Shown: positions 4,357 to 32,000 of the stretch, piece after piece
Layout of the letters: each line of letters opens with the position of its first letter
Position numbering within the stretch: position 1 is the stretch's first letter
Assembly: GCA_040391965.1 (NCBI GenBank)
Contig: JBEBWV010000032.1
Span: 16,519-48,518 of the forward strand
From: Achromobacter deleyi
Lineage (GTDB): Bacteria; Pseudomonadota; Gammaproteobacteria; Burkholderiales; Burkholderiaceae_B
Reading direction: 5' to 3'
DNA: 32,000 bases
Translations under genes and position numbers: made by a program
Notes under the pieces: model-generated
The model's database searches: none
What the model saw: only the letters and a program-made list of their open reading frames with translations
What the model was told of the DNA's origin: nothing

Positions 4357-4359
4357 AAG

Positions 4360-4860
4360 TTATTTCCCGCCGTTGATCATGCGCAGCGGCGGCGCGGGTG
4401 GCGCAAATCTGCCTGTCGCAACCGCGCCAGCAGCTGCCTTGCCCGCTTCTTTTTTGCCTTGATCACCCAGTTTCTTGTGGGCGTAAGGCATCAACGATTT
4501 CGCTGCCTCAAGCCGCAGCTTGGGATCTTCTTCGATGTCATTCATGATCGCCACAAGCACGTCCTTGGGATCAGACGTCAAGCCAAGTGCGGCAAGACCG
4601 ACCTTAGGTAATTGCACCACCTCGCCACCAGATGACTCCGATTGCTCGGCAGTTGGCGGGGTGGGAGCGGCAGGCGGCAATTCCGGCGCTGCCTCCGTTT
4701 TGCGATCCAGCGCAGCCAACACATCGGGGTGCTTGGCGAGCCTTGACCCCGCCTGGGATGCTGTCGCTTCACTGTATCCAGCCGCGATTGCTGCGTCTTT
4801 GTTGGACGCACCTCGGGCCAAGGCTTCAACAAACTTGCGTTGTTTACTTGTTAAAGCCAT
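4360..4860 (-). CDS. terS: Terminase small subunit (Terminase_2-like HTH N-terminus)
   Basis: N-terminus MALTSKQRKFVEALARGASNKDAAIAAGYSEATASQAGSRL. Lies directly upstream of terL. Confidence 0.75.
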   Translation of the reverse strand: MALTSKQRKFVEALARGASNKDAAIAAGYSEATASQAGSRLAKHPDVLAALDRKTEAAPELPPAAPTPPTAEQSESSGGEVVQLPKVGLAALGLTSDPKDVLVAIMNDIEEDPKLRLEAAKSLMPYAHKKLGDQGKKEAGKAAAGAVATGRFAPPAPPLRMINGGK

Positions 4861-4917
4861 TAACAGATCCTGAAATCGGGGGTATTTTCTGCGCGTGCGG
4901 GAATAGTCGGTCTAGAG

Positions 4918-4957
4918 TCCCTGCCCCCTCCATTTTTAGACCCCCCCCTGCCCTCCC
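4918..4957. repeat. Two C-rich direct repeats (CCCTGCCC(CC)TCC) in the HNH-terS intergenic region; possible cos / terminase-binding region
   Basis: TCCCTGCCCCCTCC at 4918-4931 and CCCTGCCCTCCC at 4946-4957, separated by ATTTTTAGA. The position matches cos of HNH-dependent HK97-like packaging modules. Confidence 0.25.
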
Positions 4958-4998
4958 ACGATGGGGCTAGGGCTTGCGGAGAGGGCACCAGGGCGCGA

Positions 4999-5343
4999 TC
5001 ACATGCCAGATGATCGCTCTTCCTGCCTCTTCACCACGTCGTGGCAGGGCGCGCATAGAGGCTGCCAGTTGCTCTCGTCCCAGAATAGATTTTGGTCACC
5101 ACGATGGGGGATGATGTGATCGACCACCGACGCAAGCACGCCAACCAACCCATTGCGTTGGCAGTAGCAGCACATTGGATGCTCTCGCAGAAATAGTGCT
5201 CGCCCTTTCTGCCAGCGATATCCGTACCCTCGCTGCGTGCTGGTCTGCTTGTCAGCCCGCCAACTCACCGACTCAACGATGCGCCCGCGAGAGGGAGCCA
5301 TCTGAATGGACGGCTTCAATGTTGCAAGCTTCGGACGGCCCAT
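4999..5343 (-). CDS. Phage-associated HNH endonuclease (packaging accessory)
   Basis: Motifs CCYCQ...VDHIIPHRGDQNLFWDESNWQPLCAPCH. A TAATG overlap with the upstream gene favours the start at 5343; an alternative ATG is at 5352. Confidence 0.85.
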   Translation of the reverse strand: MGRPKLATLKPSIQMAPSRGRIVESVSWRADKQTSTQRGYGYRWQKGRALFLREHPMCCYCQRNGLVGVLASVVDHIIPHRGDQNLFWDESNWQPLCAPCHDVVKRQEERSSGM

Positions 5344-5597
5344 TACTGCCATTGCCTCACCAGCTCAATGTCTACGCGGCCATGCAACCGGCGCATAACC
5401 ACACTTTCGCGGCGTGCGTTCAACATGTACTCACCGTCTGGCCCTAACGCACTCAACAGCACAAAGCCGCGCCGAGTGTCCGCAGTGAAGCAGCGATGCT
5501 GCTCAATCCCATTCAAGCGCACGCGGACCAAGACATTGCGAGGCATCGCTTTGTATGCTCGATGGCCAGGGTCGCCCTTTCGTACTGATAGCCGCAT
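5343..5597 (-). CDS. Hypothetical phage protein (84 aa)
   Basis: ATG at 5595-5597 is preceded by GAGGAATAAACCA. Translationally coupled to the HNH gene. The longer ORF-track version (to 5714) has no RBS. Confidence 0.5.
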   Translation of the reverse strand: MRLSVRKGDPGHRAYKAMPRNVLVRVRLNGIEQHRCFTADTRRGFVLLSALGPDGEYMLNARRESVVMRRLHGRVDIELVRQWQ

Positions 5598-5759
5598 TGG
5601 TTTATTCCTCGTGTTGATCTTGCCGGGTGCCACCAACAGCACGCCGCCCGGCGGCGACGATCCCATACCCACGCACTCCCCAGCGCGTGGCCCTCGGTGG
5701 CAAAGGGGCAACAAAAAGCCCCGCGCGATTTCTCGGGCAGGGCAGAATATTTATCTCGA

Positions 5760-5796
5760 TGTGTACCGTACACACTAATAGTGTGTATAATACACA
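5760..5796 (+). promoter_or_regulatory. hicAB promoter/operator: two TGTGTA-N3-TACACA inverted repeats, the second containing TATAAT
   Basis: TGTGTACCGTACACA at 5760-5774 and TGTGTATAATACACA at 5782-5796. TATAAT at 5786-5791 lies 8 nt before the hicA ATG. Confidence 0.5.
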
Positions 5797-5798
5797 TC

Positions 5799-5981
5799 AT
5801 GGACAGCAAAGACTTAATCAAACAACTTGAGCGGGATGGTTGGGTTTTGCAAAACGTGAAGGGTTCGCACCACGTTTACCGCCATCCAAACAAACCGGGG
5901 CACATAAGCGTCCCACACCCTAAAAAGGATTTCGGCCCTGGCATAACCCACAAACTACTCAAGCAAGCTGGCCTTAAATGA
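5799..5981 (+). CDS. hicA: HicA family mRNA-interferase toxin
   Basis: 60 aa: MDSKDLIKQLERDGWVLQNVKGSHHVYRHPNKPGHISVPHPKKDFGPGITHKLLKQAGL, the canonical HicA pattern. Confidence 0.9.
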   Translation: MDSKDLIKQLERDGWVLQNVKGSHHVYRHPNKPGHISVPHPKKDFGPGITHKLLKQAGLK

Positions 5982-6024
5982 ACAACACCCCGGCAGTGCC
6001 GGGGATTCTCCTATCGAGGATCGT

Positions 6025-6417
6025 ATGAAATACCCTATCGCCATTGAACCTGGCAACGACACTCAAGCCTGGGGTGTTGTTGTCCCTGATCTGCCTGGCT
6101 GCTTCTCTGCCGCAGATGAAGGAATTGACCAGGCAATTGAGAATGCCAAGGAAGCAATTGAGGCTTGGATTGAGGCCGCAATGGATAGCGGCGATCCCGT
6201 TCCAGCACCCAGCAGTATCACGGCGCTGCAAGCGGATCCTGAGTACGCAGGATGGATCTGGGCGATTGTTGAGATCAACCCGGCTGTGCTGGATGAAACC
6301 ATCGAGCGAATCAACATCACGCTGCCGCGCCGAATCCTTGCCCGCCTTGACTCCAAGGCACGTGCCGCCGGTGAAAGCCGCTCCGGCTACATCGCCCACA
6401 TGGCACTCACTCGCTAG
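6025..6417 (+). CDS. hicB: HicB family antitoxin with C-terminal RHH (CopG-like) domain
   Basis: MKYPIAIEPGNDTQAWGVVVPDLPGCFSAADEGIDQAIENAKEAIEAWIE... and C-terminal INITLPRRILARLDSKA.... Confidence 0.9.
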   Translation: MKYPIAIEPGNDTQAWGVVVPDLPGCFSAADEGIDQAIENAKEAIEAWIEAAMDSGDPVPAPSSITALQADPEYAGWIWAIVEINPAVLDETIERINITLPRRILARLDSKARAAGESRSGYIAHMALTR

Positions 6418-6425
6418 CCTCAACC

Positions 6426-7103
6426 ATGCCCATTACCGACGATGTTGAAGAGAAACTGCGCCGTAACCTCATGGTGTTTTCAATAACCGTAATGATGGCC
6501 TGGTGGCTGGGGCTCAAAGTGCCCTCAATCGCAGCCCTGGTCGACCCCAAGCTTCTTTCAGTTGACGCTCCGAGCAGGATCTGGGGAGCGGCTGCGGCAC
6601 TTCTTATCTACTGCTTGCTTCGCTATCACTTTAGCGAGGGACGCGTAAAGCAATCAGAATTGATGCGAGAGGCAATTGCTGAGCGCAGGGAGCGACCAGT
6701 CAAGAGATACCTACAAAAGCTAGTAGCGAAAAAACACAACGACAGTAACCGCTCAACTTATGAGCACTCTAAGGCATTGAACCCTACCGCACCGACTCTC
6801 GAATCATCACCAGAGATCGTGCATTGGAGGACATTCAAAATTGTTCGATTCAATAGACTGGACACCATCTTCGGCACTTATCGATACAAGTCGGATCAAG
6901 ACACACCCGGTGATTTTGAGTATCGATACCCATACGAGGATTACTCAACAAGCTATCAATTGCCTAAAGCAAGGGCATGGGCTAGCGAAGGTTTTGCGCT
7001 CCTCACATCCACATTTGCTTCGCGGGGGGCGCTCGAAATTTACATGCCGTATTTACTTGCTATCTGCGCGTTGATCGTCAGCTTAAGTATGGCTTGGCAA
7101 TAA
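6426..7103 (+). CDS. Hypothetical membrane protein (2 N-terminal and 1 C-terminal predicted TM segments)
   Basis: 225 aa. Hydrophobic stretches FSITVMMAWWLGL, IWGAAAALLIYCLL and YLLAICALIVSLSMAW. Visibly AT-richer than the phage backbone. Confidence 0.6.
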   Translation: MPITDDVEEKLRRNLMVFSITVMMAWWLGLKVPSIAALVDPKLLSVDAPSRIWGAAAALLIYCLLRYHFSEGRVKQSELMREAIAERRERPVKRYLQKLVAKKHNDSNRSTYEHSKALNPTAPTLESSPEIVHWRTFKIVRFNRLDTIFGTYRYKSDQDTPGDFEYRYPYEDYSTSYQLPKARAWASEGFALLTSTFASRGALEIYMPYLLAICALIVSLSMAWQ

Positions 7104-9051: not shown

Positions 9052-9491
9052 ACCACCTCCGGGGAATACGTCACTTTCGGGTCTAGGTAATTGAGCAATG
9101 CCTCGCGCGCTTGGTCAAAGCTGTAACAGACCTCCACGCGATACCCTGCTTGCTTCAAGTAGTCCACCCAGTCTTTTTGCGTTTCGGACAGGCGCCCTGT
9201 CGCTGCCTTCATTTCTATCCAGAGCCCGGGGCAACCGAAGCGTGGCACGGGCAAGAACAGATCCAGCACGCCAGCCTTCACGCCCTGGCGCTTCAAGTTG
9301 GCGGCGACCAATACATGACGCTGCCCACCATTGGGAATATGGAACAGGCGAGCGAGTCCGGGATAGACCTTCGTCTGTCGCGCCGCCCATGTGATCACTT
9401 GCGCCTGGATAACGTCCTCGCTCGGGCCTGCTACTGCCACCTTCTTCGTAGCTGCACGGCGCGGTGCCTTGGTCCAACGTGCCATCGTCAT
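9048..9491 (-). CDS. VRR-NUC domain nuclease
   Basis: PD-(D/E)xK signature: HIPNGG...GVLDLFLPVP...LWIEMK...LSETQKDW. Confidence 0.85.
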   Translation of the reverse strand: MTMARWTKAPRRAATKKVAVAGPSEDVIQAQVITWAARQTKVYPGLARLFHIPNGGQRHVLVAANLKRQGVKAGVLDLFLPVPRFGCPGLWIEMKAATGRLSETQKDWVDYLKQAGYRVEVCYSFDQAREALLNYLDPKVTYSPEVV

Positions 9492-10267
9492 GCTGCGCGC
9501 TCCCGGTAGCTGGCCCAGTCGAACACCACCATGCGCCCCCCGCCCTCACGCATGCGGTCGACAACGCGGTCACCCAAGTATTCGGTCAGCCGGGGCTTTG
9601 CCAAGTTACTGATGAGGATGGTCGGGCGCATCCGGTTGTAGCGTTCGTTCATGATGTCGAACAGCAGCATCTTTTCAGCATCCGAGCCGTACTGACTGCC
9701 AATCTCGTCCAGCACCAGCAGATCGGGGCCGGTGAATCGGGCGATTGCGGCCGACTCCGTTGCCGCGCTGTCTTTGCGGTACGTTTCCTTGATCGAGCGC
9801 ATGGCATCGAGCAGCACCGCGAATCGTGCTGAGTAGCCTTGAGCCAAGACCGAGTGCATAGCACTGATGGCCAAATGCGTCTTACCCGTGCCCACACCAC
9901 CACACAGGATCAGGCCATTGCCACCGTCACGCGCAGAGGTAAAACTCTCGCCGTAGGCTTGCACCGTGCGCAACGCCTTGGCCGCATCGTCGGTTGGGGG
10001 CACATACGTTTCGAAGCGGGCATCGAAGTAGCGTTCAGGGATTTCGGCACGGCGCATGTGGTGCTCACGTGCCGCCATCATTTCCTGACGCAGCTGCTCA
10101 GCCTTCATCTGGCGACCAACGCACACCGGGCAGTCAGACCAACCCACCGGCGTTTTCATGGAAGGAAACTCACCGTGCTCGTCACACGAGCGCGATTCGG
10201 TGGCGAAATTAAAAACGCCCGTCATCACCGACCCCAGCGTGGTAGTCCTGCTTTGCGAAATTTCCAT
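9488..10267 (-). CDS. DnaC/IstB-like AAA+ replicative helicase loader
   Basis: Walker A LILCGGVGTGKTHLA and Walker B LLVLDEIG. ATG at 10267 follows AGGAG. Alternative starts are at 10225 and 10372. Confidence 0.85.
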   Translation of the reverse strand: MEISQSRTTTLGSVMTGVFNFATESRSCDEHGEFPSMKTPVGWSDCPVCVGRQMKAEQLRQEMMAAREHHMRRAEIPERYFDARFETYVPPTDDAAKALRTVQAYGESFTSARDGGNGLILCGGVGTGKTHLAISAMHSVLAQGYSARFAVLLDAMRSIKETYRKDSAATESAAIARFTGPDLLVLDEIGSQYGSDAEKMLLFDIMNERYNRMRPTILISNLAKPRLTEYLGDRVVDRMREGGGRMVVFDWASYRERAA

Positions 10268-11138
10268 GAATCGGTGCTCCTGTGGTCTTTGCTGCCCGGC
10301 TTGTCCGGAATGCTTGGGGGTTGGTTGCGTCTTTCTGTGCACGGCCCAGCCATGACACGATGAACCGGGCAATGCCTCGGCGTGTCGGGCGTTTGGGGAG
10401 GTTGGCGTTCAGCCAAACCCGCATGCGGGAAAACTCGCCGTGTGCGTCAACGGCGGGAAAGGCTGCACTCCACTCTGCAACCTGCTGGGGTTCTGCACCG
10501 AACTCGGAGCCGTCGACAAGCGGAAGCAAGGCGATGGGATTGGGAGTTTGGTTTTGGTCTTCGGGGTTGGCCGAAGGCGAATTCAGGTCATCGGAAGAAT
10601 CTGCGCCAGCAGATTCATCTTTGTTTTGTTGGTTGTCTTTTGGAAGGTTGTCTTTTGTGTGTACCGTTTTCGTACTATCGACCTGTACCGAATCCGTACT
10701 AGCAACAACACCATTTCCGTACACCTGTACCGTTTTCGTACATGTACCGATTTGGGACACCTGTACAGATTTCGTACTAGATGGATGTACAGATTCCGTA
10801 CTAGCACCCCAACGCGAATAATCTTTGTTGATGCCCAAGATGCAGCCGTACTTTCCCGGGCGCTTGTGGATCACACCCAGGGCCGCCAATTCATTCAGGG
10901 CCGTGGTGATATGGGGGCGTGCCATCTTGCCCAGGAGCGCCCCCAACTGCGATGCAGACAGGTCGTCCTCTTTCTTGCCATAGCCGTATGTCTTACGGAC
11001 TACGGCCATAGCGACCTTGTATTGCTTACCGCTAAGCGGGAATGCCAATAAAGCGTCGTACAGCTCATTGGCAATACGAACGTGGCCGTCTTCCAGCTGG
11101 GGGGATTTCTGAGGCATTTTCAACACCACCGCGCTCAT
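10209..11138 (-). CDS. Replication initiator, lambda O-like (Phage_rep_O N-terminal domain)
   Basis: N-terminus GHVRIANELYDALLAFPLSGKQYKVAMAVVRKTYGYGKKEDDLSASQL. The repetitive middle part (TKSVQV, TKTVQV, TDSVQV, TKTVHT) is encoded by the iterons. Confidence 0.85.
   Translation of the reverse strand: MSAVVLKMPQKSPQLEDGHVRIANELYDALLAFPLSGKQYKVAMAVVRKTYGYGKKEDDLSASQLGALLGKMARPHITTALNELAALGVIHKRPGKYGCILGINKDYSRWGASTESVHPSSTKSVQVSQIGTCTKTVQVYGNGVVASTDSVQVDSTKTVHTKDNLPKDNQQNKDESAGADSSDDLNSPSANPEDQNQTPNPIALLPLVDGSEFGAEPQQVAEWSAAFPAVDAHGEFSRMRVWLNANLPKRPTRRGIARFIVSWLGRAQKDATNPQAFRTSRAAKTTGAPIHGNFAKQDYHAGVGDDGRF
10659..10803. repeat. Phage origin of replication: six iterons GTACMGWWTYCGTAC inside the O-like gene, next to a T-rich tract
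   Basis: Copies start at 10661, 10685, 10727, 10744 (degenerate), 10763 and 10787. Each is a GTAC...GTAC dyad. A T-rich stretch at 10615-10660 is adjacent. Confidence 0.75.
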
Positions 11139-11407
11139 GATCTAACGTGCCTCCAACGCCACACACCCAGGTACTCATAGGATTGCTTCACCAGGCCTGC
11201 GCGAAGGGCTTCCCAAAGCAAATGCTCAGCAACAGCACGCGCAACCATGGCAGGCGTTGTGCGTGCCCAGGCGCCATGCGCTGATGTGATGTGGGGCTCG
11301 ATGGCTTCACCGATCTTGCGTGCGCTGAAGGAGTAACGCTGTGCCTGTATGGCTGCCCTGCCCGCTTCCTGTGCCGCGTCGGATATCGTGTAGCCCATGA
11401 TCTTCAT
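11135..11407 (-). CDS. Hypothetical protein (90 aa)
   Basis: ORF with 4-nt overlaps to both neighbours in the early-right operon. Confidence 0.55.
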   Translation of the reverse strand: MKIMGYTISDAAQEAGRAAIQAQRYSFSARKIGEAIEPHITSAHGAWARTTPAMVARAVAEHLLWEALRAGLVKQSYEYLGVWRWRHVRS

Positions 11408-11769
11408 GCCGGCACTCCACGAGTCATGCCGACGGCGCGCAAGGCTGCGTCAGGTACGTGATGGCCGTTGTTCAGCAGGATGGTGATGCACTCGCGCAGC
11501 AGGTCTATCTGCTTGCCGTAGCGCTGCTCGAATCTCGCCTTCCATGGATGCACAGCAATGCGGTCGGGGGCGCCTGTGCCGTCCTGGTGGTTGCCAGCGG
11601 AGAGCGGCAGCACCAGCCAATGGGCATCGGGTTTCGTGCGGCCGTCGATATGGTGGATGGAGCAGATCTCGTCGAAACGACCGTCTTTCCACGACGCAAT
11701 GCAGCCGATTTCACGCACGAGCAGATCATGAAAGCGCCGTTGCTCTGCGGTGACTGCACGGCCCTTCAT
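11404..11769 (-). CDS. Ref-family-like (HNH-type) recombination enhancement nuclease
   Basis: Pattern ...AEQRRFHDLL...GCIAS...SIHHIDGRTKPDAHWLVLPLS...HPWKARFEQRYGKQIDLL matches my memory of Ref-family proteins. Some of the usual Cys positions are replaced. Confidence 0.5.
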   Translation of the reverse strand: MKGRAVTAEQRRFHDLLVREIGCIASWKDGRFDEICSIHHIDGRTKPDAHWLVLPLSAGNHQDGTGAPDRIAVHPWKARFEQRYGKQIDLLRECITILLNNGHHVPDAALRAVGMTRGVPA

Positions 11770-22088: not shown

Positions 22089-22337
22089 ATGAGCGAAGGA
22101 ACATTTCTATCTGAGGACGAGGTTGGCCAGCTCACCGGCGTCAAAACCGGCCGGAAGGTCAACGGCGTAAGCGTGCGCCGCGAGCAGCTTCAGGCCAACT
22201 GGCTTCGCAGCACTGGCATTCCCTTCTACATTAACGCACGTGGCCGACCAATCATTGTGCGCGCGAACCTCACTGGCAGACCTTCGGGAAGTGAATTGAA
22301 AGCGCCGTGGCAACCGCGTGCCATTCGAGCAGCTTAG
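22089..22337 (+). CDS. DUF4224-like protein; putative excisionase / recombination directionality factor
   Basis: FLSEDEVGQLTGVKTGRK...QLQANWLRSTGIPFYINARGRPIIVR. Lies immediately upstream of the integrase. Confidence 0.6.
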   Translation: MSEGTFLSEDEVGQLTGVKTGRKVNGVSVRREQLQANWLRSTGIPFYINARGRPIIVRANLTGRPSGSELKAPWQPRAIRAA

Positions 22338-22342
22338 AGACC

Positions 22343-23422
22343 ATGGGACGGAAACCTTACAAGCACACCAATCTGCCGGCACGCATGCGCGCGCGCACTC
22401 GACACGGTGGCAAAACCTATTACTACTACGACACGGGAGTGCGCCCCCGCAAGGAAATCCCTCTCGGGCCCGATTTCGTCGAAGCGGTGAAGAAATGGGC
22501 AGAGCTTGAACGCGTCGATGCACCAAGCGGCGTTGCCGTTGCCACCTTCCGCTATGCGGCAGAACAATACCTTCGCGTAGTCATCCCTACCAAGGCGCCA
22601 AGAACGCAGGCAGACAACATAAAGGAGCTCGCTGTTCTATATGAGTACTTCGATGCGCCCCCAGCGCCTCTAGACGAAATACGCCCACAACACATCCGCC
22701 TTTATATGACCTGGCGCGCTGAAAAAGCGCGGGCCTGGTACGTCCAAAAAGGCCGCGAAGTGCCCGCGTCTGCCGGTCACGTCCGCGCGAATCGCGAGAT
22801 CGCGCTGTTCAGCCATATCTTCAATTTTTCACGGGAAAACGGCATTACCGACGCGCCAAACCCCTGCGCTGGCGTTCGCAAAAACCGGGAGACTGGCCGG
22901 CAGATTTACGTCGAGGATGATGCGTTTAAGCTCGTTTGGGATGCAGCTGATCAGCCCACCCGGGACGCCATGGACCTTGCCTATTTAACAGGCCAACGTC
23001 CTGCCGATACGCTGAAATTTGATGAACTCGACATTAGAGAGGAAATGCTCCACGTCGCCCAAGGCAAAACAGGGAAGAAGCTGCGCATCAGCATCACTGG
23101 CGACTTGGCGGTGGTGATAACTAGAATTCGAGCCCGAAAAGCGGGATATCAATCTGCATCAACCGCACTGGTCGTTAATGAGAGTGGTCAGCGTATGACG
23201 TATGAGGCATTGCGCCAGCGATTCCACGCGGCCCGAGAAAAAGCTGGTGTCGCAATGGAGGGCTTTCAATTCCGCGATCTACGCGCCAAAGCTGGGACAG
23301 ATAAGGCAGACTCGGCAGGTGACATACGACAAGCACAGCGCCAGCTCGGACATAAATCCGTCCAAATGACTGAGCATTATGTCCGCGAACGCAAGGGTGA
23401 CAAGGTCGATCCAACGCGGTAA
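22343..23422 (+). CDS. int: Tyrosine-type site-specific integrase
   Basis: MGRKPYKHTNLPARMRARTRHGGKTYYYYD.... C-terminal catalytic region ...FRDLRAKAGTD...LGHKSVQMTEHYVR. Confidence 0.9.
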   Translation: MGRKPYKHTNLPARMRARTRHGGKTYYYYDTGVRPRKEIPLGPDFVEAVKKWAELERVDAPSGVAVATFRYAAEQYLRVVIPTKAPRTQADNIKELAVLYEYFDAPPAPLDEIRPQHIRLYMTWRAEKARAWYVQKGREVPASAGHVRANREIALFSHIFNFSRENGITDAPNPCAGVRKNRETGRQIYVEDDAFKLVWDAADQPTRDAMDLAYLTGQRPADTLKFDELDIREEMLHVAQGKTGKKLRISITGDLAVVITRIRARKAGYQSASTALVVNESGQRMTYEALRQRFHAAREKAGVAMEGFQFRDLRAKAGTDKADSAGDIRQAQRQLGHKSVQMTEHYVRERKGDKVDPTR

Positions 23423-23538
23423 TTTCTGCTCCGCAATCGCATAGCGGGCTAACGCCCATGCGGCTCTTAAGCGCGCATTTATTGAACAATTGCGGAGCGG
23501 GAACTGGCATCAGTACTTTGATTTTCCTGGCGTTTCCC

Positions 23539-23588
23539 GTGGAATCATAATCCGCAGGTCCCCTGTTCGAATCAGGGATGCGCCACCA
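23539..23588 (+). other. 3' fragment of a tRNA-Met(CAT)-type gene (anticodon arm to CCA) = prophage att core
   Basis: Anticodon arm GTGGA-ATCATAA-TCCGC, variable loop AGGTC, T arm CCCTG-TTCGAAT-CAGGG, acceptor 3' strand ATGCGCC, then A-CCA. No matching 5' acceptor strand or D arm upstream. Confidence 0.6.
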
Positions 23589-23615
23589 AAGAATTCTCCT
23601 GTAAATCAGGGCCTT

Positions 23616-23648
23616 AACGCCACCCTCTGAGGTGGCGTTTTTGTTTTC
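23616..23648 (+). terminator. Rho-independent terminator (native tRNA terminator)
   Basis: AACGCCACC-CTCTGA-GGTGGCGTT followed by TTTGTTTT. Confidence 0.7.
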
Positions 23649-23727
23649 TATGGCAAATCTGTCAACGAAGTGTCAACGCAGCTTAAGGGGCCGTTACCGC
23701 GCACTTAAGTGGATAGCAGAGCGTAGA

Positions 23728-24708
23728 TCAACCCCATGCCGCAACGGTATTGGCATCGAAGAAGTCCACATGCTTTCCAGGCCCGCCCAAGAAGCCCAAC
23801 GCATTTGCTTTGAGTCGTCGATTTGAACCATTGCCCTCATCCCCGAAGACGCTAACGAAGATCTGCCGCGCACCCGATTTGCGAATCGCCTCAAAAATAT
23901 GCGCGTCGTTCTCGTCCATTGAATGCCCAAGGATAAAGATCGGCGCTGCACTGGCCTCGAGTTTCCGTAGGCAGAAGGTCAGGTACCGGCTGCGATCAAT
24001 TCGCTGTTTCTTCTTTTGATGAGTGGGCTCAGCAACAAACAGCGGAAATCGCGGGGGCTCCATTTCCAGGTTGGCTCGCACCTGTTCGACGATTCCCCCG
24101 CCAACTTCGCCCGTGTACGCCTGTTTCCGAATACCCGTGGGACCTTCGTAAAGATGGAGCCCGCCATGCAGGAAGTGAACCTCCTGCTCGGTCCCATATT
24201 CTTTCCACCGCCGTTCCGCCCGAAATCCGTCATCAGTGTGCCACTCTGGTTCAAGTTCCTGATTTCGAGCCCAATACATTAGAAGGTCGTAATTTACCGT
24301 GAAGACCTGACTAAAGCGTCTTAAAAACGTCCGTACGGCTTGATACTGTGCAATTGTTAGATCACTCGGAAGCCGGGGATGATTGTCTGAAATCGCAACT
24401 AAAAGAGCTCGTTTCAGAATCTCTTGGTCCGTCTTGATATTTTCGATGATTGGTTGCTCAACCGCGTGAACCTCCGCCACCATCTGTGCTGCGAGGAGTG
24501 CGCGCATGACGGCCTCGAAGTCCCAGGTGTTCAGCCGTTCAAATAGTTCTCGTATCTGATTTTCACGGTCTTCAAAGTTCGCGACCTGGAGCAGGCTTGC
24601 GTAGTTGAAAATATCAGCGCTCCAGGCCTGCGAGAAACCATTACCTAGCAAAATTATCGGCTTGCTATTGGGGGCAAGCGCTGCGAACGCTTCGTCAAAT
24701 GTCGGCAT
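23728..24708 (-). CDS. DUF4917-like / SIR2-fold-like protein (AbiH-like N-terminal GNGFS motif)
   Basis: 326 aa. Motifs KPIILLGNGFSQAW, QVFTVNYDLLMYW, VHFLHGGLHLY and PIFILGHSMDENDAHIF. AT-richer than the prophage. Stand-alone gene. Confidence 0.65.
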   Translation of the reverse strand: MPTFDEAFAALAPNSKPIILLGNGFSQAWSADIFNYASLLQVANFEDRENQIRELFERLNTWDFEAVMRALLAAQMVAEVHAVEQPIIENIKTDQEILKRALLVAISDNHPRLPSDLTIAQYQAVRTFLRRFSQVFTVNYDLLMYWARNQELEPEWHTDDGFRAERRWKEYGTEQEVHFLHGGLHLYEGPTGIRKQAYTGEVGGGIVEQVRANLEMEPPRFPLFVAEPTHQKKKQRIDRSRYLTFCLRKLEASAAPIFILGHSMDENDAHIFEAIRKSGARQIFVSVFGDEGNGSNRRLKANALGFLGGPGKHVDFFDANTVAAWG

Positions 24709-25037
24709 GCAAAAGGGGCTGAAATGTTAATAAATCAGGACCGCGCTGAGCTAGTCAAATAGCCATGCGGCAGGACCACTTCTTCGCTTCATCCCATACA
24801 TACTCGCATAAAATTTGCGTCCGGGTAGCGAAGGACTTTTCTTACCTGAAGCTGATCAATGACAGCTCCGTTCAAATCTCAATGGCGGGTTTCTACTAAG
24901 TCCTTGATTTCTGGCAGCGTCGAGTTCCAAACTCAAGGACATTCGACAGTAAAATCGAGAGCATTAGGCAATGAAGACGTCAATGCCACTGGCACTGCCA
25001 GCCAACGCAGCGCGCAGCATCAATTAAGGAGATTTGA

Positions 25038-25271
25038 GTGCATGGATTTTGGAGCACCATATTCATAATTATTTTGGTACTAGCGGCGTTTGTGGCGCTG
25101 TATGAGCCTTATCCACCAGGCGGAAGGCGCCGAAAAAAAAGCTCGAAGGATCGGGAAACACTTTCTGAAATCGACAGCGGAGCTCCGACCAAGGCGCAGC
25201 CCAATCCGCAAGAAACCAACGATACCCTGAAGCGAACCCCAAAGCGCCGCCAGCGGTTCAACGCACACTGA
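25038..25271 (+). CDS. Small membrane protein (77 aa; one TM, then a basic/proline-rich tail)
   Basis: GTG start 6 nt after AAGGAG. TM segment FWSTIFIIILVLAAFVALY. Confidence 0.45.
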   Translation: MHGFWSTIFIIILVLAAFVALYEPYPPGGRRRKKSSKDRETLSEIDSGAPTKAQPNPQETNDTLKRTPKRRQRFNAH

Positions 25272-25506
25272 CATTACTCGTTGGAAAAGAGGTTATTGCT
25301 TATATGAGCCTCATCGCTTTAGAAGCCCGTTACATAGCTTAAATGCCATCATCACTGCAATAGGTCAGCAAGCGCTACTGGAGCAAATTTCCCAGCTTAC
25401 CCTTCGCGTCACACCCCAGAACGTCGCAGCCCGGCCAACATAGCCTCAACCCCTATGTCATACGGATTTTTGGTTGAGGCCTGTCTTTCGTTGCCAATGA
25501 CCCTGG

Positions 25507-26865
25507 TTATACCTTCTCAGCTTGCAAGACTAAAACAAGCTGACCATTACGCGAGCCTTCTGACTTTGCAAAGTTCCAGCCAAACAATCCCTGCGTCGAA
25601 CGTTCACGCTGCACGTCACTCAAGCCCCCCAGAACCACAATCTCGCCGTTTCCCATCGTTAGCGAGGTCGAAAGCTCCCGCTTGTTAAGTGTCGGGTTGT
25701 CTGAGTTGCCTACTGTCGTCTTTACGAAGCTGGAAACTGTTTGCACTATGTCCAGGCCGATCGCGTCACCCCGTATATGAGCCGACACGTCAAAAATTAC
25801 CCCTGAGCTGACGTACTTGAAGCTCTGCGCTGATTGTCCATTAGGGTTAAACAAAATTTCTCCGGCAACAGGGACATCTTGCCCAACTTGGAATCGGGCC
25901 GACCTCCCGTTTTGAACCCTAAGAAATGGTCTGGTCAAGACCTTGAAACGTGAGTCCTCAGAAATCATTGATGCAACGAAGTCCAAGTTGGATGACGTGA
26001 TGGAAAGGCTGCCGCCAGACAACATAGATCCACCGATGGTGACACCCAGCTTTCCTCCTAGAAGATCCGCAATTACCTTCAATGCGGACGCCTCAGTCGA
26101 TGAGTTCGATACCTCATATAGAACGGCTTTGACCATGACGGACGAAGATGGGGTGTCCAAGGCCGCAACGATTTCCTTCAGACGCCCGATTTGCTTTGAT
26201 TCCCCACTGAATACCAACACTTCATCGATCTCGCTAATCGGCAATGATGTTGTAGCAGCGGAGCTACGGCTTCCAGCTAAAGGAAGAGCCACACCCCGGC
26301 CACTATTTCCGTTGGCAAAGACCCCAACGACGAGAGGCGTAGCGACCCGGATCAAATCCGAAACAGAACGATGCCTAGGTTTATATGTGAACACTTTCCC
26401 ATTTCGAGCCGCCTTCTGCTCTTCAGTCAATTCTGGAGGCTTAGCACACACAGTGGCTACTCCTCCAACCATATTCAAAGCCAGTCCATTGGCATCCAGC
26501 AAAGCGACCATCATTGCCCGATCCAACGCTTTTCCCGACGCACGCAGGCTCACGTATCGCGTATCGGACAGTACCTCGGAGCAGATAACATAGGCAGACC
26601 TAGCCACTTCGGAAAAATACAGCTGGATGACTTGAGACAACGGCACCGAAGTTAAGTTGAACCCCACGCTCTCAGACTCGGAGGCCTTCGAGTTCAACAG
26701 ATGTTCAATGCTCTCAAACTTGGCCAGTTCCGCAGCACTCCACCGATCTGGATCAACATAGACGTGTCCAGCAACGGGACCTACCTTGGGATCAATACCT
26801 GGTAAGGGCTGGCCAAGAGCGGCTCGAATAAAAAACATAGCAATAATTACAACAAAAAATCGCAT
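25507..26865 (-). CDS. Secretin, phage pIV-like
   Basis: 452 aa with a signal peptide. Secretin C-domain patterns VMVKAVLYEVS, RPFLRVQNGRSARFQVGQDVPV and TLNKRELSTSLTMGNGEIVVLGGL. Confidence 0.85.
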   Translation of the reverse strand: MRFFVVIIAMFFIRAALGQPLPGIDPKVGPVAGHVYVDPDRWSAAELAKFESIEHLLNSKASESESVGFNLTSVPLSQVIQLYFSEVARSAYVICSEVLSDTRYVSLRASGKALDRAMMVALLDANGLALNMVGGVATVCAKPPELTEEQKAARNGKVFTYKPRHRSVSDLIRVATPLVVGVFANGNSGRGVALPLAGSRSSAATTSLPISEIDEVLVFSGESKQIGRLKEIVAALDTPSSSVMVKAVLYEVSNSSTEASALKVIADLLGGKLGVTIGGSMLSGGSLSITSSNLDFVASMISEDSRFKVLTRPFLRVQNGRSARFQVGQDVPVAGEILFNPNGQSAQSFKYVSSGVIFDVSAHIRGDAIGLDIVQTVSSFVKTTVGNSDNPTLNKRELSTSLTMGNGEIVVLGGLSDVQRERSTQGLFGWNFAKSEGSRNGQLVLVLQAEKV

Positions 26866-26889: not shown

Positions 26890-27915
26890 TTAGTCAACAA
26901 ATGGAGCCGCATCGATTTTTTTGGATGAATGCTCACCAGCGAGAAAGGCTCCCGTGCCGCTATAGCCATATGTGGAGTCATAGACGAACCGTCCCGACCG
27001 ATCCACTACGACAACAAACCTAGACCCAGGCAATGTCACCACGCCACCTATACGAAGATCACGCCGTAAAAGTTCTGGAGCCTTAGTGGCAGCACTAGAC
27101 GATTGGGGTGCCGCTCGAGAGGAAGGAAAAACCGCCACCTCCCCCTTAGTTTTCGGTGCTGCTGGATGAAAAAAACCCCACAAGAACCAAAATGAGTACC
27201 CGCTCGCACCGCACAGAAGAAGACACAACAGCCACAGCCGAGGGTTGTTGAACACGTTTTGACGAGAATCGACAGCCACTTCAGTACCACCAACACCCGC
27301 ATAGCTCTTGTAGAGAGGAAAAATTTGCTTGTCGTAACGCGTAACCCTACGACCGACTAGGCAACTTTTCGTCTGCTTTCCGCCTTCCCAAAATTCAATG
27401 CGATAGGACCGATTCAGCCCAAGCGTTTTGAGCTTTGTCGTCCTAAAATTGATTTCGACAACAGCCCGTAATAGGCGATGAACGTCTCCTATTGCCTGAA
27501 ATACAAGAGCCAAATCACACGAAACACCCGTGTCCGCATGGCTGAAATGCCGGTGCATACGAAAGAACTGCATGTGCTCAGGCGAGAGTTTTTTGTCCGT
27601 GGACCAAAACCGCCACGCTTCGTCAATAACCACCATATCTCCTGCTTTCACAATAGAGGGCGCGTCTTGGTTCGCCCCGTCCGGAAAAAAACCCGGCTTT
27701 GATACGTCCTCGTCAGAGACATGAACAATTGAACCCAACTCCTCCTGGTGGTTTGGGTTCTTCTTCCGAAGATAAGCGTGAATCTTTTCCTCGCTGATGC
27801 CATCAATGTTAGTAACGATCCGGCGGCTCTTTAAGACAGCCGGAACAATCACGTTCAGCGTCACTTCGAAAGACTTTCCGGACCCCATGACTCCCGTATA
27901 AACGTTGACAGCCAT
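26890..27915 (-). CDS. zot: Zot / pI-type assembly ATPase
   Basis: MAVNVYTGVMGSGKSFEV (Walker A), VVIDEAW (Walker B) and a C-terminal TM segment. Confidence 0.9.
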   Translation of the reverse strand: MAVNVYTGVMGSGKSFEVTLNVIVPAVLKSRRIVTNIDGISEEKIHAYLRKKNPNHQEELGSIVHVSDEDVSKPGFFPDGANQDAPSIVKAGDMVVIDEAWRFWSTDKKLSPEHMQFFRMHRHFSHADTGVSCDLALVFQAIGDVHRLLRAVVEINFRTTKLKTLGLNRSYRIEFWEGGKQTKSCLVGRRVTRYDKQIFPLYKSYAGVGGTEVAVDSRQNVFNNPRLWLLCLLLCGASGYSFWFLWGFFHPAAPKTKGEVAVFPSSRAAPQSSSAATKAPELLRRDLRIGGVVTLPGSRFVVVVDRSGRFVYDSTYGYSGTGAFLAGEHSSKKIDAAPFVD

Positions 27916-27918
27916 GGC

Positions 27919-28209
27919 TCATCCAATAATCGGAATTCGACGGATTGCGAACCGCGTCACACAAGCGCTAAAAACCATGGAGAGCCCAGCTGGCACCTGG
28001 AACACATCCATGAAATACATCATCGAAGGAGGCAAAGTCGCAAAGGACCTAAAGACAGAATCGCTAGAAGGTAGTAGCGCAGAAACGATGACCTCAGTGA
28101 ATTCAGTCGTGATAAAGAACAGCGCAAAGAAGACGACAAACTTGACCAGGACAGACTTAACAAGCCAGCCCACCACAGTAAATAGTGCTGAAAGCAAGAT
28201 CGAAAACAT
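27919..28209 (-). CDS. pVI-like minor coat / membrane protein (DUF2523-like)
   Basis: 96 aa and strongly hydrophobic. Lies between the pIII-like and zot genes. Confidence 0.6.
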   Translation of the reverse strand: MFSILLSALFTVVGWLVKSVLVKFVVFFALFFITTEFTEVIVSALLPSSDSVFRSFATLPPSMMYFMDVFQVPAGLSMVFSACVTRFAIRRIPIIG

Positions 28210-28211
28210 AG

Positions 28212-29663
28212 TTACGCCCTCAACACGATGAAGAGTGCAGTGATCGACCAGGACAGAATCATCGCAAGCTGTATCAATGCCCTGTTTTCCTCCATAAGCA
28301 CGCAGTGGTGATCCATCACATACGCTGTGTCAAATAGTGAAATTTCACCTATCGGACAAACACCGACACTGCCTGAAAAGCTAGCGTTCTTAAGCTCAGG
28401 ATAGATATTCAAAATCGGCTCAAGAATCATCTGGGCCGTTGGAATTTTTTCCAGTGGCGGTGCTCCGACATTCGGATCGGGCCCCCAGTCCACCTGAGCC
28501 CCATCCGGGTTGCCTGGGATGACCACGGGTGGCGTTGTTGTTCCATCGGTCGGCAAGTACTGCTCAGGCATCGGGAGCGGAACCACTGTCGCCGCCGGTG
28601 GCGCAATCGCTTCCGTCAGGTCCCTGATCGTGGGCCTGGAAAGACCAGGGTTCTCGGCAAAAACTTTCGATACATCAGAAGGCCGCACGAGCGGCTGGGA
28701 GGGTGCCCAAGGCCAATACCCTGGCTCTCCCTTAAGCTCGTCCGTAGCAGCCTTGTGCGCCGAATTGGCAAGCCCGGCAAGCCACACATCAGAAAGAGGC
28801 TGATCAAGCTTCTCATCGGGAAGCCTCATTAGCTGCTCTATAGCATCGTCAATCGGCTTTTCCACGACCTCAGGTGGCCCTTGATCGACGTAGCCGGAAG
28901 CAGGCTGAAATTCCCAAAGCTGCCTTTTTCGCCGATTGCTTGGATCTGAAATATACGCAAACTCAGCAATCCGGACCCATGAATCCCCGCCAGTCACATA
29001 TGGACCGGTCATGGTCCCATCAACCTTGGTCTCCGAATAAGGAAAACCAGATCCTGCTATCGAGCAAGTACCAATTGGATTGTCGCAAGGCAAAATGAAT
29101 ACCTGCACACGAGTGACTTTGGGTGGCGCAGACGAGCCTGTTGCAACGTTCACCCAATAGCTGCCTTGGCCGTGAGCCTCAACAAATTCTTTTCTGCTTG
29201 AAAAAGAGTTCACCAAAGGCAGAGCGCTGGAATCAGCACCGGCTTGTTCCACTCGAATGACATCACGGTTGTCGGTCAAAACCCAGCTCAAACCTTCGAC
29301 CAAACCGTATGCGCCACCCACCCCACCGACAGTTCCCAAACCGGCATAGACTGCCGTTTTTGCCCAAGGAAGTGCTTGAATAGAATGTCCTAGGCTCGAC
29401 ATTCGTCCGGCTAGCCCTCTACCGACCGCAACCACCGTCGACAGCATCCTGGGATCACGAGCTGCGTAACCCCCAGCTCGCATTCCCCAAGGCAAAGCCG
29501 CTCCAATAAATGCACCAATCCGGCCTGCTCCAAAAAGCAGCGGCAGAAACGCATGCGCTGGAGGCACCAGCGTCAACATCTGAAAGGCAAGCATTAACCC
29601 CGCAATCCAACGACGATTAGCGCGCCGCATACGATTCCCCATACGAAAAAAATCATGCTCCAC
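28212..29663 (-). CDS. pIII-like adsorption / minor coat protein
   Basis: 483 aa. Signal-like MRRANRRWIAGLMLAFQMLTLVPPAHA (alternative start at 29630), proline-rich linker and C-terminal TM anchor. Lies after the major coat gene. Confidence 0.6.
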   Translation of the reverse strand: MEHDFFRMGNRMRRANRRWIAGLMLAFQMLTLVPPAHAFLPLLFGAGRIGAFIGAALPWGMRAGGYAARDPRMLSTVVAVGRGLAGRMSSLGHSIQALPWAKTAVYAGLGTVGGVGGAYGLVEGLSWVLTDNRDVIRVEQAGADSSALPLVNSFSSRKEFVEAHGQGSYWVNVATGSSAPPKVTRVQVFILPCDNPIGTCSIAGSGFPYSETKVDGTMTGPYVTGGDSWVRIAEFAYISDPSNRRKRQLWEFQPASGYVDQGPPEVVEKPIDDAIEQLMRLPDEKLDQPLSDVWLAGLANSAHKAATDELKGEPGYWPWAPSQPLVRPSDVSKVFAENPGLSRPTIRDLTEAIAPPAATVVPLPMPEQYLPTDGTTTPPVVIPGNPDGAQVDWGPDPNVGAPPLEKIPTAQMILEPILNIYPELKNASFSGSVGVCPIGEISLFDTAYVMDHHCVLMEENRALIQLAMILSWSITALFIVLRA

Positions 29664-30959: not shown

Positions 30960-32000
30960 TTAGATGGCGCCCGACAAAGCGTTTTCAGCGGGTGGCGCTA
31001 GCCCCACTACGCGTAGAATTTCTTCGTGTTGTGCAAGGCGCAACCGCCGCGGCAAACCTTGCACGCCAACTATTAAGCGTTCAACGATGTTCTGTGCCTC
31101 CAGTCCAGCATCGACGAATAGCTTCACCAATTTTCCGTAGCCAATCCTTGCGTAATCGGTAATATGCGAAAGGCTTAGGGCTACGGAAGTTCGGAAAGTA
31201 GTAACTCTCTCAATTCGAGAAGAATTGGCCAGATCCGCAAGGTACTTATTTGCCCCAGAAAAATAAGCCGCAGGGTCCAACAAAGCGTCGATTGGGATAC
31301 GCCGATTTACGCTTCGAAGCTCCAGCTCAATGCGGAACCAGCCCTGCTTACGAGCCAACTGCATAGACTTTTCATATCCGCGAATTAACTTTCCGTTCTC
31401 GCGTCTGCCGACATGACAAGTGGAACCCCGTCGCTGATCTTCAATATTCCAAAGCGAAGGTGACACCCCCCGCGAGGGCTTAAACAAGCCTTGCTCGTAA
31501 GCCTCACGCATAGCCAGATAAGAGCTTTCGCCTTCAAAGCAGTCGCGAGCTAAGTCAACACGGCTCAAATGACTGACTTCAAATTCCAGCAAGAGCTTAT
31601 GAATTTCGTGATTCAGCCAAGAACCACTGGCCAGCCAACCTGCCGCCGGTATCTGGCAATGAACCATCCCCTTTTGGGTGCTCCCACCAAACCACACGGC
31701 GCTCAGCAATGTGTCTGAGCTTTTGATTCGCAGGCTAGATTTATAGAAATGAGCTCCTGTACCTTCTTCAATTTTTCCGCCCAATAGAGCAGCAAGCCGT
31801 TCACCGACCTGCCAGGCCAAACTGCTAACAGTCATATCGTCATGGCTTTTGCTGCGAATGCTGAAGGACAAGTAGTCAACGTGAACAAGACCTTCCGATT
31901 GACGCTTCTTGCATTTCAACCAAATCTCAGTTCCATCCGTCTCTAGATCTTCAGAGTCTTCGCAGATATCGTTGACCTGACTCATTTCTATTTGCCCCAT
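30960..32000 (-). CDS. Rolling-circle replication initiator (Rep_trans / gene II-like); start at or beyond the window edge
   Basis: Motifs LSRVDLARDCF, HVGRRENGKLIRGYEKSMQL and WFRIELELR are typical of replication initiation factor family proteins. Confidence 0.8.
   Translation of the reverse strand: MGQIEMSQVNDICEDSEDLETDGTEIWLKCKKRQSEGLVHVDYLSFSIRSKSHDDMTVSSLAWQVGERLAALLGGKIEEGTGAHFYKSSLRIKSSDTLLSAVWFGGSTQKGMVHCQIPAAGWLASGSWLNHEIHKLLLEFEVSHLSRVDLARDCFEGESSYLAMREAYEQGLFKPSRGVSPSLWNIEDQRRGSTCHVGRRENGKLIRGYEKSMQLARKQGWFRIELELRSVNRRIPIDALLDPAAYFSGANKYLADLANSSRIERVTTFRTSVALSLSHITDYARIGYGKLVKLFVDAGLEAQNIVERLIVGVQGLPRRLRLAQHEEILRVVGLAPPAENALSGAI

Follow-up and report, generated by a model that had tools for sequence, protein, structure and literature searches.

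What is a gene without an evident partner doing at the junction of two prophages, and what does its product do for the cell that carries it? The question is raised by a stretch of 32,000 nt from Achromobacter deleyi (contig JBEBWV010000032.1; hereafter the window), in which an open reading frame (ORF) at 23728-24708 on the minus strand, with an ATG start and 326 codons for amino acids, lies between a lambdoid tailed prophage and the conserved genes of a filamentous (inovirus) prophage. A preliminary description of the window, made from the letters alone, had pointed to this gene as a possible single-gene phage defense with a fold like that of SIR2. We find that it encodes a single-domain protein of the SIR2 fold that belongs to the DUF4917/PDC-S21 family and travels as a single-gene cassette. 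The explanation we favor as a whole, which we place a little above an even chance, is that a SIR2-fold PDC-S21 enzyme carried in the variable arm of the inovirus protects the lysogen against other phages by consuming nicotinamide adenine dinucleotide (NAD+).

The protein is a member of DUF4917 (Pfam PF16263), as had been proposed, and the match is full length: 192.2 bits against a cut-off of 28 (E 1.9e-56), with residues 19-325 covering profile positions 1-311 of 311. It is also matched by two PADLOC models of PDC-S21, a single-gene phage defense candidate (PDLC04960, E 9.5e-106, residues 2-325; PDLC04961, E 1.1e-72), and by an unnamed PHROGs family (phrog_30889, 8.8e-40); a search of NCBIfam with the protein gave no match, and the phages in INPHARED gave no DNA or protein match to the gene. 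DUF4917 counts 696 matches in a 90%-clustered collection and 2327 representative clusters (E<=1e-3) in a 50%-clustered library, nearly all of 320-360 aa with a single matched stretch. The present protein resembles the rest of the family, which spans about 320-360 aa, in size, in having one domain, in the invariant motifs and in being a single-gene unit of defense or mobile contexts. Its closest homologues lie in Burkholderiales genomes (an exact-sequence look-up of P0001 gave no record), and it falls in the free-standing clade (at least 41% identity) and not in the clade embedded in type I restriction-modification (RM) operons. The parallels to SIR2_2 and AbiH drawn in the preliminary description do not amount to membership of either: SIR2_2 (PF13289) reached 15.9 bits against a gathering score of 24.5, over residues 135-184 only, and AbiH (PF14253) 14.8 against 30.9, over 25 profile positions (residues 239-280), each of these sub-threshold matches covering one motif. 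The likeness to AbiH is confined to a GHS-type C-terminal strand in that one matched stretch, together with a putative GNGF-type N-terminal loop named in the preliminary description. The gene is a further member of an already catalogued candidate family and not a new kind; new here are the inovirus-arm setting, for which a natural counterpart lacking the cassette exists, and the connection to published work on SliP of Campylobacter jejuni (Cjj81176_0779), which is described as belonging to DUF4917 and having a G-N-G NAD loop (PMC10421069). The earlier statement that the family has no characterized function is outdated, given both the PDC-S21 entry in PADLOC and the SliP report.

The three ordered motifs first noted in this product are all present in a real ORF, with LLGNGFS at residues 20-26, FTVNYDLL at 136-143 and FLHGGLH at 179-185. 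Across 48 homologues (51-87% identity), N23, G24, S26, N139, Y140, D141, H181, G182 and H185 are all invariant. The same holds for G22, N23, G24, S26, Y140, D141, D160, H181 and G182 across 86 cluster representatives of DUF4917, sequences only 30-46% identical to the query, in which P222, K233, G261, D268 and H270 are also invariant and position 139 is Asn in 84 and Ser in two. Because invariance extends over 86 such diverse representatives, the three motifs are not chance strings. The landmarks GxGxS, TxNxD, HG and GxS of an NAD site occur in that order, as G22-N-G24-F-S26, T137-V-N139-Y-D141, H181-G182 and G261-H-S263, and the residues predicted to line the site are G22-N23-G24-x-S26, N139-Y140-D141, H181-G182 and G261-H262-S263...D268-x-H270. 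At the level of motifs the NAD+ pocket appears intact, comprising the GNGFS glycine loop, catalytic-type N139/D141 with H181, and a putative adenosine-binding strand, GHS...D-x-H.

A confident AlphaFold2 model built from the 48-sequence alignment (pLDDT 90.5, pTM 0.89) leads from a strand at residues 18-21 into the GNGFS loop, through a four-helix insert at about 39-130 to a strand at 134-137 that precedes N139-Y-D141, and then to strands around H181-G182 and a second alpha/beta half with G261-H-S263...D268-x-H270. Structural comparison bears out the SIR2-like fold that had been suspected: a Foldseek search of the PDB returned 40 matches at E<=1e-3, all of them SIR2 proteins, with probabilities of 0.99-1.00. 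The SIR2 subunit of SIR2-HerA (Nezha) takes the first 13 places, with E values down to 8.6e-8 and template modeling (TM) scores of 0.47-0.56, and canonical sirtuins follow at ranks 14-50 with lower TM; the viral fold library BFVD gave no match below E 0.1. At the sequence level the link between DUF4917 and SIR2 is weak but consistent. A PDB search with the 48-sequence profile returned only a spurious methyltransferase (E 1.1), and a diverse profile reached PsSIR2 (8w9l) at a sub-threshold E of 0.27 with TNYD, DGF, HG and G-x-S..D-HI aligned. Comparison by hhalign of the diverse DUF4917 alignment with the SIR2_2/PDC-S25 profile gave a probability of 64% (E 6.6e-5, 123 columns), which indicates a related family and not membership, and only 5% with a shallow alignment; in the former, GNGFS pairs with GSGlS and TLNYD with TTNYD.

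Among known systems the best structural match is thus the SIR2 of SIR2-HerA (Nezha/GAO_19; PDB 8uae, 8sub, 8wld, 8w9l), a defense NADase that shares the TNYD, DGF, HG and G-x-S..D-HI motifs and has a helical insert where a zinc ribbon would otherwise be. The gene described here differs from it in standing without a HerA partner, at 11-16% identity and a TM of about 0.5: its neighbors are a 77-aa ORF, a secretin gene and a phage attachment (att) site, and no HerA-like family recurs in the 77 loci whose neighbors were clustered. The SIR2_2 defense proteins (ThsA of Thoeris, DSR1/DSR2 and PDC-S25) are alike in fold class and have the first two motifs in register, whereas the present protein scores below the SIR2_2 gathering threshold and comes without SLOG, a large sensor domain or a TIR partner. 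No second Pfam domain, including the SLOG/STALD domain of ThsA, was found in its 326 residues, nor was a TIR domain, as in a ThsB-like partner, among the adjacent genes scanned. Canonical deacetylating sirtuins hold their peptide substrate with a zinc ribbon. This ribbon is absent here, because the protein has a single cysteine (C246) and two CxxC pairs occur in none of its 86 relatives; the four-cysteine zinc-binding module of canonical sirtuin deacetylases (SIR2, PF02146 type) was accordingly not found. The zinc ribbon is likewise missing from the defense NADases.

The gene is mobile in its own right. Its DNA matches to the closest loci extend from 24846 to 23683 (locus L199), from 24793 to 23694 (L203) and from 24788 to 23724 (L026), none reaches further, and the flanks beyond differ in every genome. 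Because DNA homology is confined to 23683-24846, we conclude that the gene moves as a single-gene cassette of 1.16 kb on the minus strand, in which the ORF is preceded by about 138 nt and followed by about 45 nt. The upstream region of about 140 nt (24709-24846, minus strand) is conserved across loci and travels with the gene; it includes a TTGACT-like box and a ATTTATTAAC box, both conserved across loci, and probably holds the gene's own promoter and 5' untranslated region. A consensus promoter scan made no call in this interval.

To ask in what company the family is found elsewhere, we used 79 genome loci with 10-kb flanks, for 77 of which ORFs were called and neighbors clustered. The sole recurrent neighbors are type I restriction genes, and these occur in a distant clade: 14 of the 77 loci, all at 33-40% identity, have the order hsdM/hsdS-DUF4917-hsdR-YgjP-like peptidase (L033, L045, L057, L066, L069, L075 and eight more). 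When 150 genes within two positions of the DUF4917 gene were compared by Fisher's test with 150 genes at least 6.5 kb away, the type I methyltransferase was found 8 times near and once distally (p=0.036) and the type I specificity subunit 7 times near and never distally (p=0.015); Pfam tallies of the near genes agree and additionally include TIR_2, XhoI, integrases and IS66. The close clade has no recurring neighbor family and no RM embedding, and its eight contexts all differ. They comprise a complete type III CBASS with an insertion sequence (IS; P0005, 84% identity), the cargo region of P4-like integrative elements (P0010, 76%; P0017, 73%), an island of type I RM and GAPS4-type genes (P0019, 73%), ParE and HigB-type toxin genes (P0009, 76%), an integrase-bounded element (P0008, 78%), an IS fragment (P0016, 72%) and a place alone among housekeeping genes (P0006, 82%). 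The gene had been described as standing alone, and neither the clustering nor these eight contexts gives it a conserved neighbor; the enrichment near defense genes that the preliminary description had asked about is seen in the type I RM counts and in the CBASS, GAPS4 with RM, P4-like and toxin-antitoxin contexts. The CBASS beside the 84%-identical homologue (L110, 3019-8323) consists of SMODS, a bacterial HORMA protein, an AAA/Trip13-like protein and a SAVED effector, and an ImmA/IrrE-type peptidase-HTH pair also lies beside that homologue. In a P4-like element beside a 76%-identical DUF4917 gene (L194), a PRTase-CE/wHTH protein adjoins a reverse transcriptase (4329-6946) and two Hist_deacetyl genes flank a DUF3293 gene (9209-11710); these genes may be further defense cargo.

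In which element, then, does the cassette reside in the window? The answer turns on a 47-nt att core at 23542-23588 (plus strand; GGAATCATAATCCGCAGGTCCCCTGTTCGAATCAGGGATGCGCCACCA), which corresponds to the 3' portion of a tRNA-Met(CAT) gene, beginning in the anticodon loop and ending with CCA. The core comes directly after an integrase gene and marks the right-hand crossover of the lambdoid prophage; ARAGORN found no full tRNA at the core, and an Rfam scan of 23000-25600 gave sub-threshold noise only, the partial tRNA itself going undetected. Next to the core lies a conserved att-proximal segment of 90 nt (23589-23678, plus strand) with a terminator hairpin at 23616-23639, followed by the cassette and then by the secretin gene, so that the gene stands between the att core and the conserved inovirus genes. 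The flanks agree with the two prophages of the preliminary description: a tyrosine integrase and partial tRNA-Met att lie on one side and an inovirus block on the other. The placement just outside the att site of one prophage holds for the lambdoid element, but the same core is the attachment site of the inovirus lineage, and because of this we consider the arm of the filamentous prophage the most likely place of the gene. The gene is accordingly less well described as wedged between two prophages than as cargo in an inovirus variable arm, as argued by the shared core and by the gene order of a related inovirus, L204.

The shared core is evident from several related inovirus prophages. Sequences 100% identical to it bound two of them (L126, 1-47; L149, 13018-13063), a third (L146) has 88% identity over 102 nt to the core plus hairpin segment, and two more (L122, L154) have a complete tRNA-Met on one side and a fragment at the opposite end; the att-proximal segment resembles the core-adjacent DNA of L126, L146 and L122. 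The closer relative L204, found in a metagenome scan, has a secretin 76% and a Zot 60% identical to those of the window. It runs from Zot through the secretin (to 8368), an arm of 951 nt that contains small ORFs, and a segment at 9320-9455 to a full tRNA-Met (9408-9484, minus strand), the 3' part of which is the end of the shared segment match. Its segment is 89% identical to the core and att-proximal segment of the window and matches positions 23678 to 23541 in reverse. The identity breaks at 23541/23542, where L204 goes on into the 5' part of the tRNA and the window into lambdoid DNA, and again at 23678/23679, 5 nt from the end of the cassette at 23683. L204 thus has the same antiparallel layout as the window, without the lambdoid prophage and without DUF4917. 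Beyond its tRNA-Met lies DNA of 64-68% GC, presumably of the host; over 9408-15365 of L204, GC rises from about 50% in the inovirus to 64-68% just past the tRNA-Met.

Based on this evidence we regard it as likely that the cassette sits in the variable arm of an inovirus integrated at tRNA-Met, and that the tandem prophages arose when a lambdoid phage subsequently integrated at this core. One alternative concerns location only, and we consider it unlikely: the gene would be chromosomal, or a separate islet downstream of tRNA-Met, merely lying between two independent prophages, as the preliminary description had it. A hairpin after the core that resembles a native tRNA terminator is in keeping with such an islet, as is the lack of a second core copy in the window, where a search allowing up to 3 mismatches found none and Smith-Waterman scores stayed within the shuffle range; 23589-25520 likewise has no other tRNA-type fragment. 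The arm beside the secretin, moreover, is without homology to those of relatives, and the tRNA is co-directional with Zot in L122, L146, L149 and L154, unlike the antiparallel arrangement of the window. Set against these points, L204, an independent contig, has the same antiparallel order of secretin, arm, 90-nt segment and tRNA-Met, and there the kilobase with the tRNA is where GC drops from the 64-68% of the host to the lower phage-side value. Several related inovirus prophages are bounded by the 47-nt core, and no step in GC separates the cassette from the inovirus: the gene has 52.6%, the arm 51.1% and the inovirus 50.8%, compared with 57% in the lambdoid prophage, all measured within the window, which holds no host DNA. 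If the host of the window resembles that of L204, both prophages and the cassette would be strongly AT-shifted relative to the chromosome.

The slot proposed for the cassette is occupied by other genes in related inoviruses. IMG/VR contains 80 related inoviruses (Zot identity 38-65%) in which the block pIII-DUF2523-Zot-secretin is conserved; DUF4917 as a conserved inovirus gene was rejected, since none of the 80 carries it. Between the secretin and att, L122 has a gene (10348-11736, plus strand) for a 462-aa SIR2_2 protein (PF13289, 1.3e-24) of PDC-S25 (5e-85), while L149 has a metallophosphoesterase and L154 an NT5C nucleotidase. Within 3.5 kb past the secretin, 58 relatives (L115-L193) include PD-Lambda-2 (B, C), PD-T4-2_A, PD-T4-10_B, NsnA, HNH, type II RM and PDC-M59A, and the region downstream of the secretin looks like a defense-gene hotspot of this inovirus lineage. 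Accessory-gene hotspots rich in defense genes have already been described in Vibrio filamentous prophages (PMC11630473). Such hotspots and the Pf KKP module (PMC11341870) are similar in being a defined variable locus of a small filamentous prophage that is enriched in defense genes, and different in belonging to another inovirus lineage, the slot here following the secretin gene beside a tRNA-Met att. DUF4917 is unreported in the Vibrio paper, in which SIR2 is not mentioned once (PMC11630473).

What the enzyme does there can be proposed as follows. The inovirus would have integrated at the tRNA-Met gene with the DUF4917 cassette in an accessory slot between the secretin and the att-proximal segment, and a lambdoid phage would then have entered the same core, leaving tandem prophages. 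The enzyme would be held inactive until another phage infects, when a cue, for instance a phage protein that binds it directly or a shift in its oligomeric state, as in DSR2 or SIR2-HerA, would activate it. The active enzyme would consume NAD+, as the SIR2 of SIR2-HerA, ThsA and the DSR proteins do, and the loss of NAD+ would arrest the infected cell before phage release. We hold a defense role for the gene to be fairly probable, and bulk depletion of NAD+ as its chemistry to be about an even call or slightly less.

Of the competing functions, the main rival is NAD-dependent deacylation of proteins by a true sirtuin like SliP, which would modify specific host or phage proteins without depleting NAD+, and we consider it improbable; ADP-ribosyl transfer and a phage-serving role rank lower. 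SliP was reported to hydrolyze NAD+ and to deacetylate acetyl-lysine peptides, and its G24A/G26A mutants lost function (PMC10421069). It is described as a secreted sirtuin-like deacetylase that is exported via the flagellum and acts on neutrophil histones, and its best threading template is ThsA (PMC10421069). It is likened to the present protein by family and description: both belong to the same Pfam family and have the G-N-G loop that mutation shows SliP to require, and SliP consumes NAD+ in vitro. SliP is reported as a flagellum-exported effector and lies in a type I RM operon, whereas the gene here is probably prophage cargo. The appearance of canonical sirtuins among the fold matches (ranks 14-50) also speaks for a deacylase. 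Against it stand the lack of a zinc ribbon, best fold matches that are defense NADases and not deacetylases, and the modest fold changes of about 2-4 in the kit assays of SliP (PMC10421069). In addition, the SliP gene itself shares an operon with the gene for a type I restriction R subunit (PMC10421069), the same embedding as in the 14 loci described above, and this shared hsdR operon placement suggests that SliP may belong to a restriction-embedded defense family.

SIR2-fold enzymes can also transfer ADP-ribose. An ADP-ribosyltransferase, or a maker of an NAD-derived signal, that targets phage DNA, RNA or protein without bulk NAD+ depletion would therefore accord with general knowledge of the superfamily, and D160, P222 and K233, which are invariant but belong to none of the four sirtuin motifs, suggest that there is another site for a substrate; no conserved adjacent effector partner exists to read a signal, and we hold this reading to be quite improbable. 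Least probable of all is that the gene serves the filamentous phage itself, through prophage maintenance (addiction) or tuning of host metabolism for chronic virion secretion, as its place in the inovirus arm and the lysogeny control, alongside defense, known of inovirus accessory toxin-antitoxin and kinase modules might suggest (PMC12328805, PMC11341870), since the same cassette occurs in many non-inovirus contexts and its gene is absent from all 80 related inoviruses, so that its function cannot depend on an inovirus.

We acknowledge that several points weigh against the favored explanation of an NAD+-consuming defense enzyme carried by the inovirus. SliP, the sole characterized member of the family, is reported as a secreted lysine deacetylase and not as a defense NADase (PMC10421069). 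Genomic context is all that makes PDC-S21 a defense candidate, and a search of the literature turned up no report in which PDC-S21 or PF16263 was tried as a defense. TM scores against SIR2 structures are only about 0.5, a PDB sequence search with the single protein gave no match, and the PADLOC models SIR2_2, Aga_SIR2 and SIR2 score only E values of about 0.01-0.03, a weak sequence link to the defense SIR2 families. The protein has no recognizable sensor domain and the gene no partner. As to location, none of the 80 related inoviruses in IMG/VR has DUF4917, and the proposal that DUF4917-bearing viral contigs are inoviruses was rejected, as Zot or secretin was detectable with the proteins of the window in none of 29. 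The second inovirus att copy would lie beyond the window, and a search for sequencing runs that might show circle or excision junctions found none; the 90-nt segment could be a native tRNA flank, and some of the post-secretin genes in IMG/VR may lie outside the prophage proper.

Should DUF4917 prove to be a working NADase defense, a bare SIR2 domain of about 330 aa would both sense infection and execute the response. The SIR2 defenses known to us need HerA, TIR, pAgo or large sensor domains. A broader proposal, which we find doubtful, is that filamentous phages integrating at tRNA-Met use the post-secretin arm as a swap-in anti-phage slot and exchange SIR2-family NADases there (DUF4917 here, PDC-S25 in L122), with the 326-aa enzyme as a complete sensor-plus-effector unit. 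If this were so, the enzyme would be among the smallest SIR2 defenses and would be delivered by a chronic, non-lytic phage, and SliP of C. jejuni would come from a family that serves primarily in phage defense. This raises doubt as to whether the host-directed deacetylase activity of SliP reflects the main role of the family. The window and L204 also offer a natural comparison of one inovirus arm with and without the cassette.

The remaining features of the window concern the two prophages themselves. The inovirus block, all on the minus strand, comprises a pIV-type secretin (25507-26865), the last conserved morphogenesis gene, present in 75 of the 80 relatives, followed by Zot/pI (26890-27915), a DUF2523 pVI-like gene (27919-28209), a pIII-like gene (28212-29663) and, at the edge of the window, a Rep_trans replication initiator (30960-32000). 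Its Zot is at most 35-41% identical to that of named phages; INPHARED gave no DNA or protein match to the inovirus DNA, and an IMG/VR scan with the secretin protein gave no relative. The rest of the variable arm, from the cassette to the secretin (24847-25506), has no homology to the arms of relatives and includes a 77-aa predicted membrane ORF (25038-25271, plus strand) with an AAGGAG ribosome-binding site, which points away from the DUF4917 gene and toward the secretin gene. Its product has a membrane helix at the N terminus and a tail that is highly charged, and no homologue was found in any of the retrieved loci.

The left element is a genuine lambdoid tailed prophage with genes for a head protease, portal, TerL and O-like and DnaC-like replication proteins. 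Its early-left operon runs from a CI-like repressor through an exonuclease to an integration module of DUF4224 (22089-22337, plus strand) and a tyrosine integrase (22307-23422, plus strand), and ends at att. Assignment of this integrase to the inovirus was rejected, as it closes a classic lambdoid early-left operon (CI...exo...DUF4224-int-att). The window is thus an example of a filamentous and a lambdoid prophage that share one tRNA-Met att core and related integrase modules. Homologues of the DUF4224-integrase pair, at 45% and 52% identity, close two inovirus prophages right after the secretin (L150, 8942-10254; L181, 9897-11199), and it appears that integration modules pass between tailed and filamentous phages and that the two compete for one att site.

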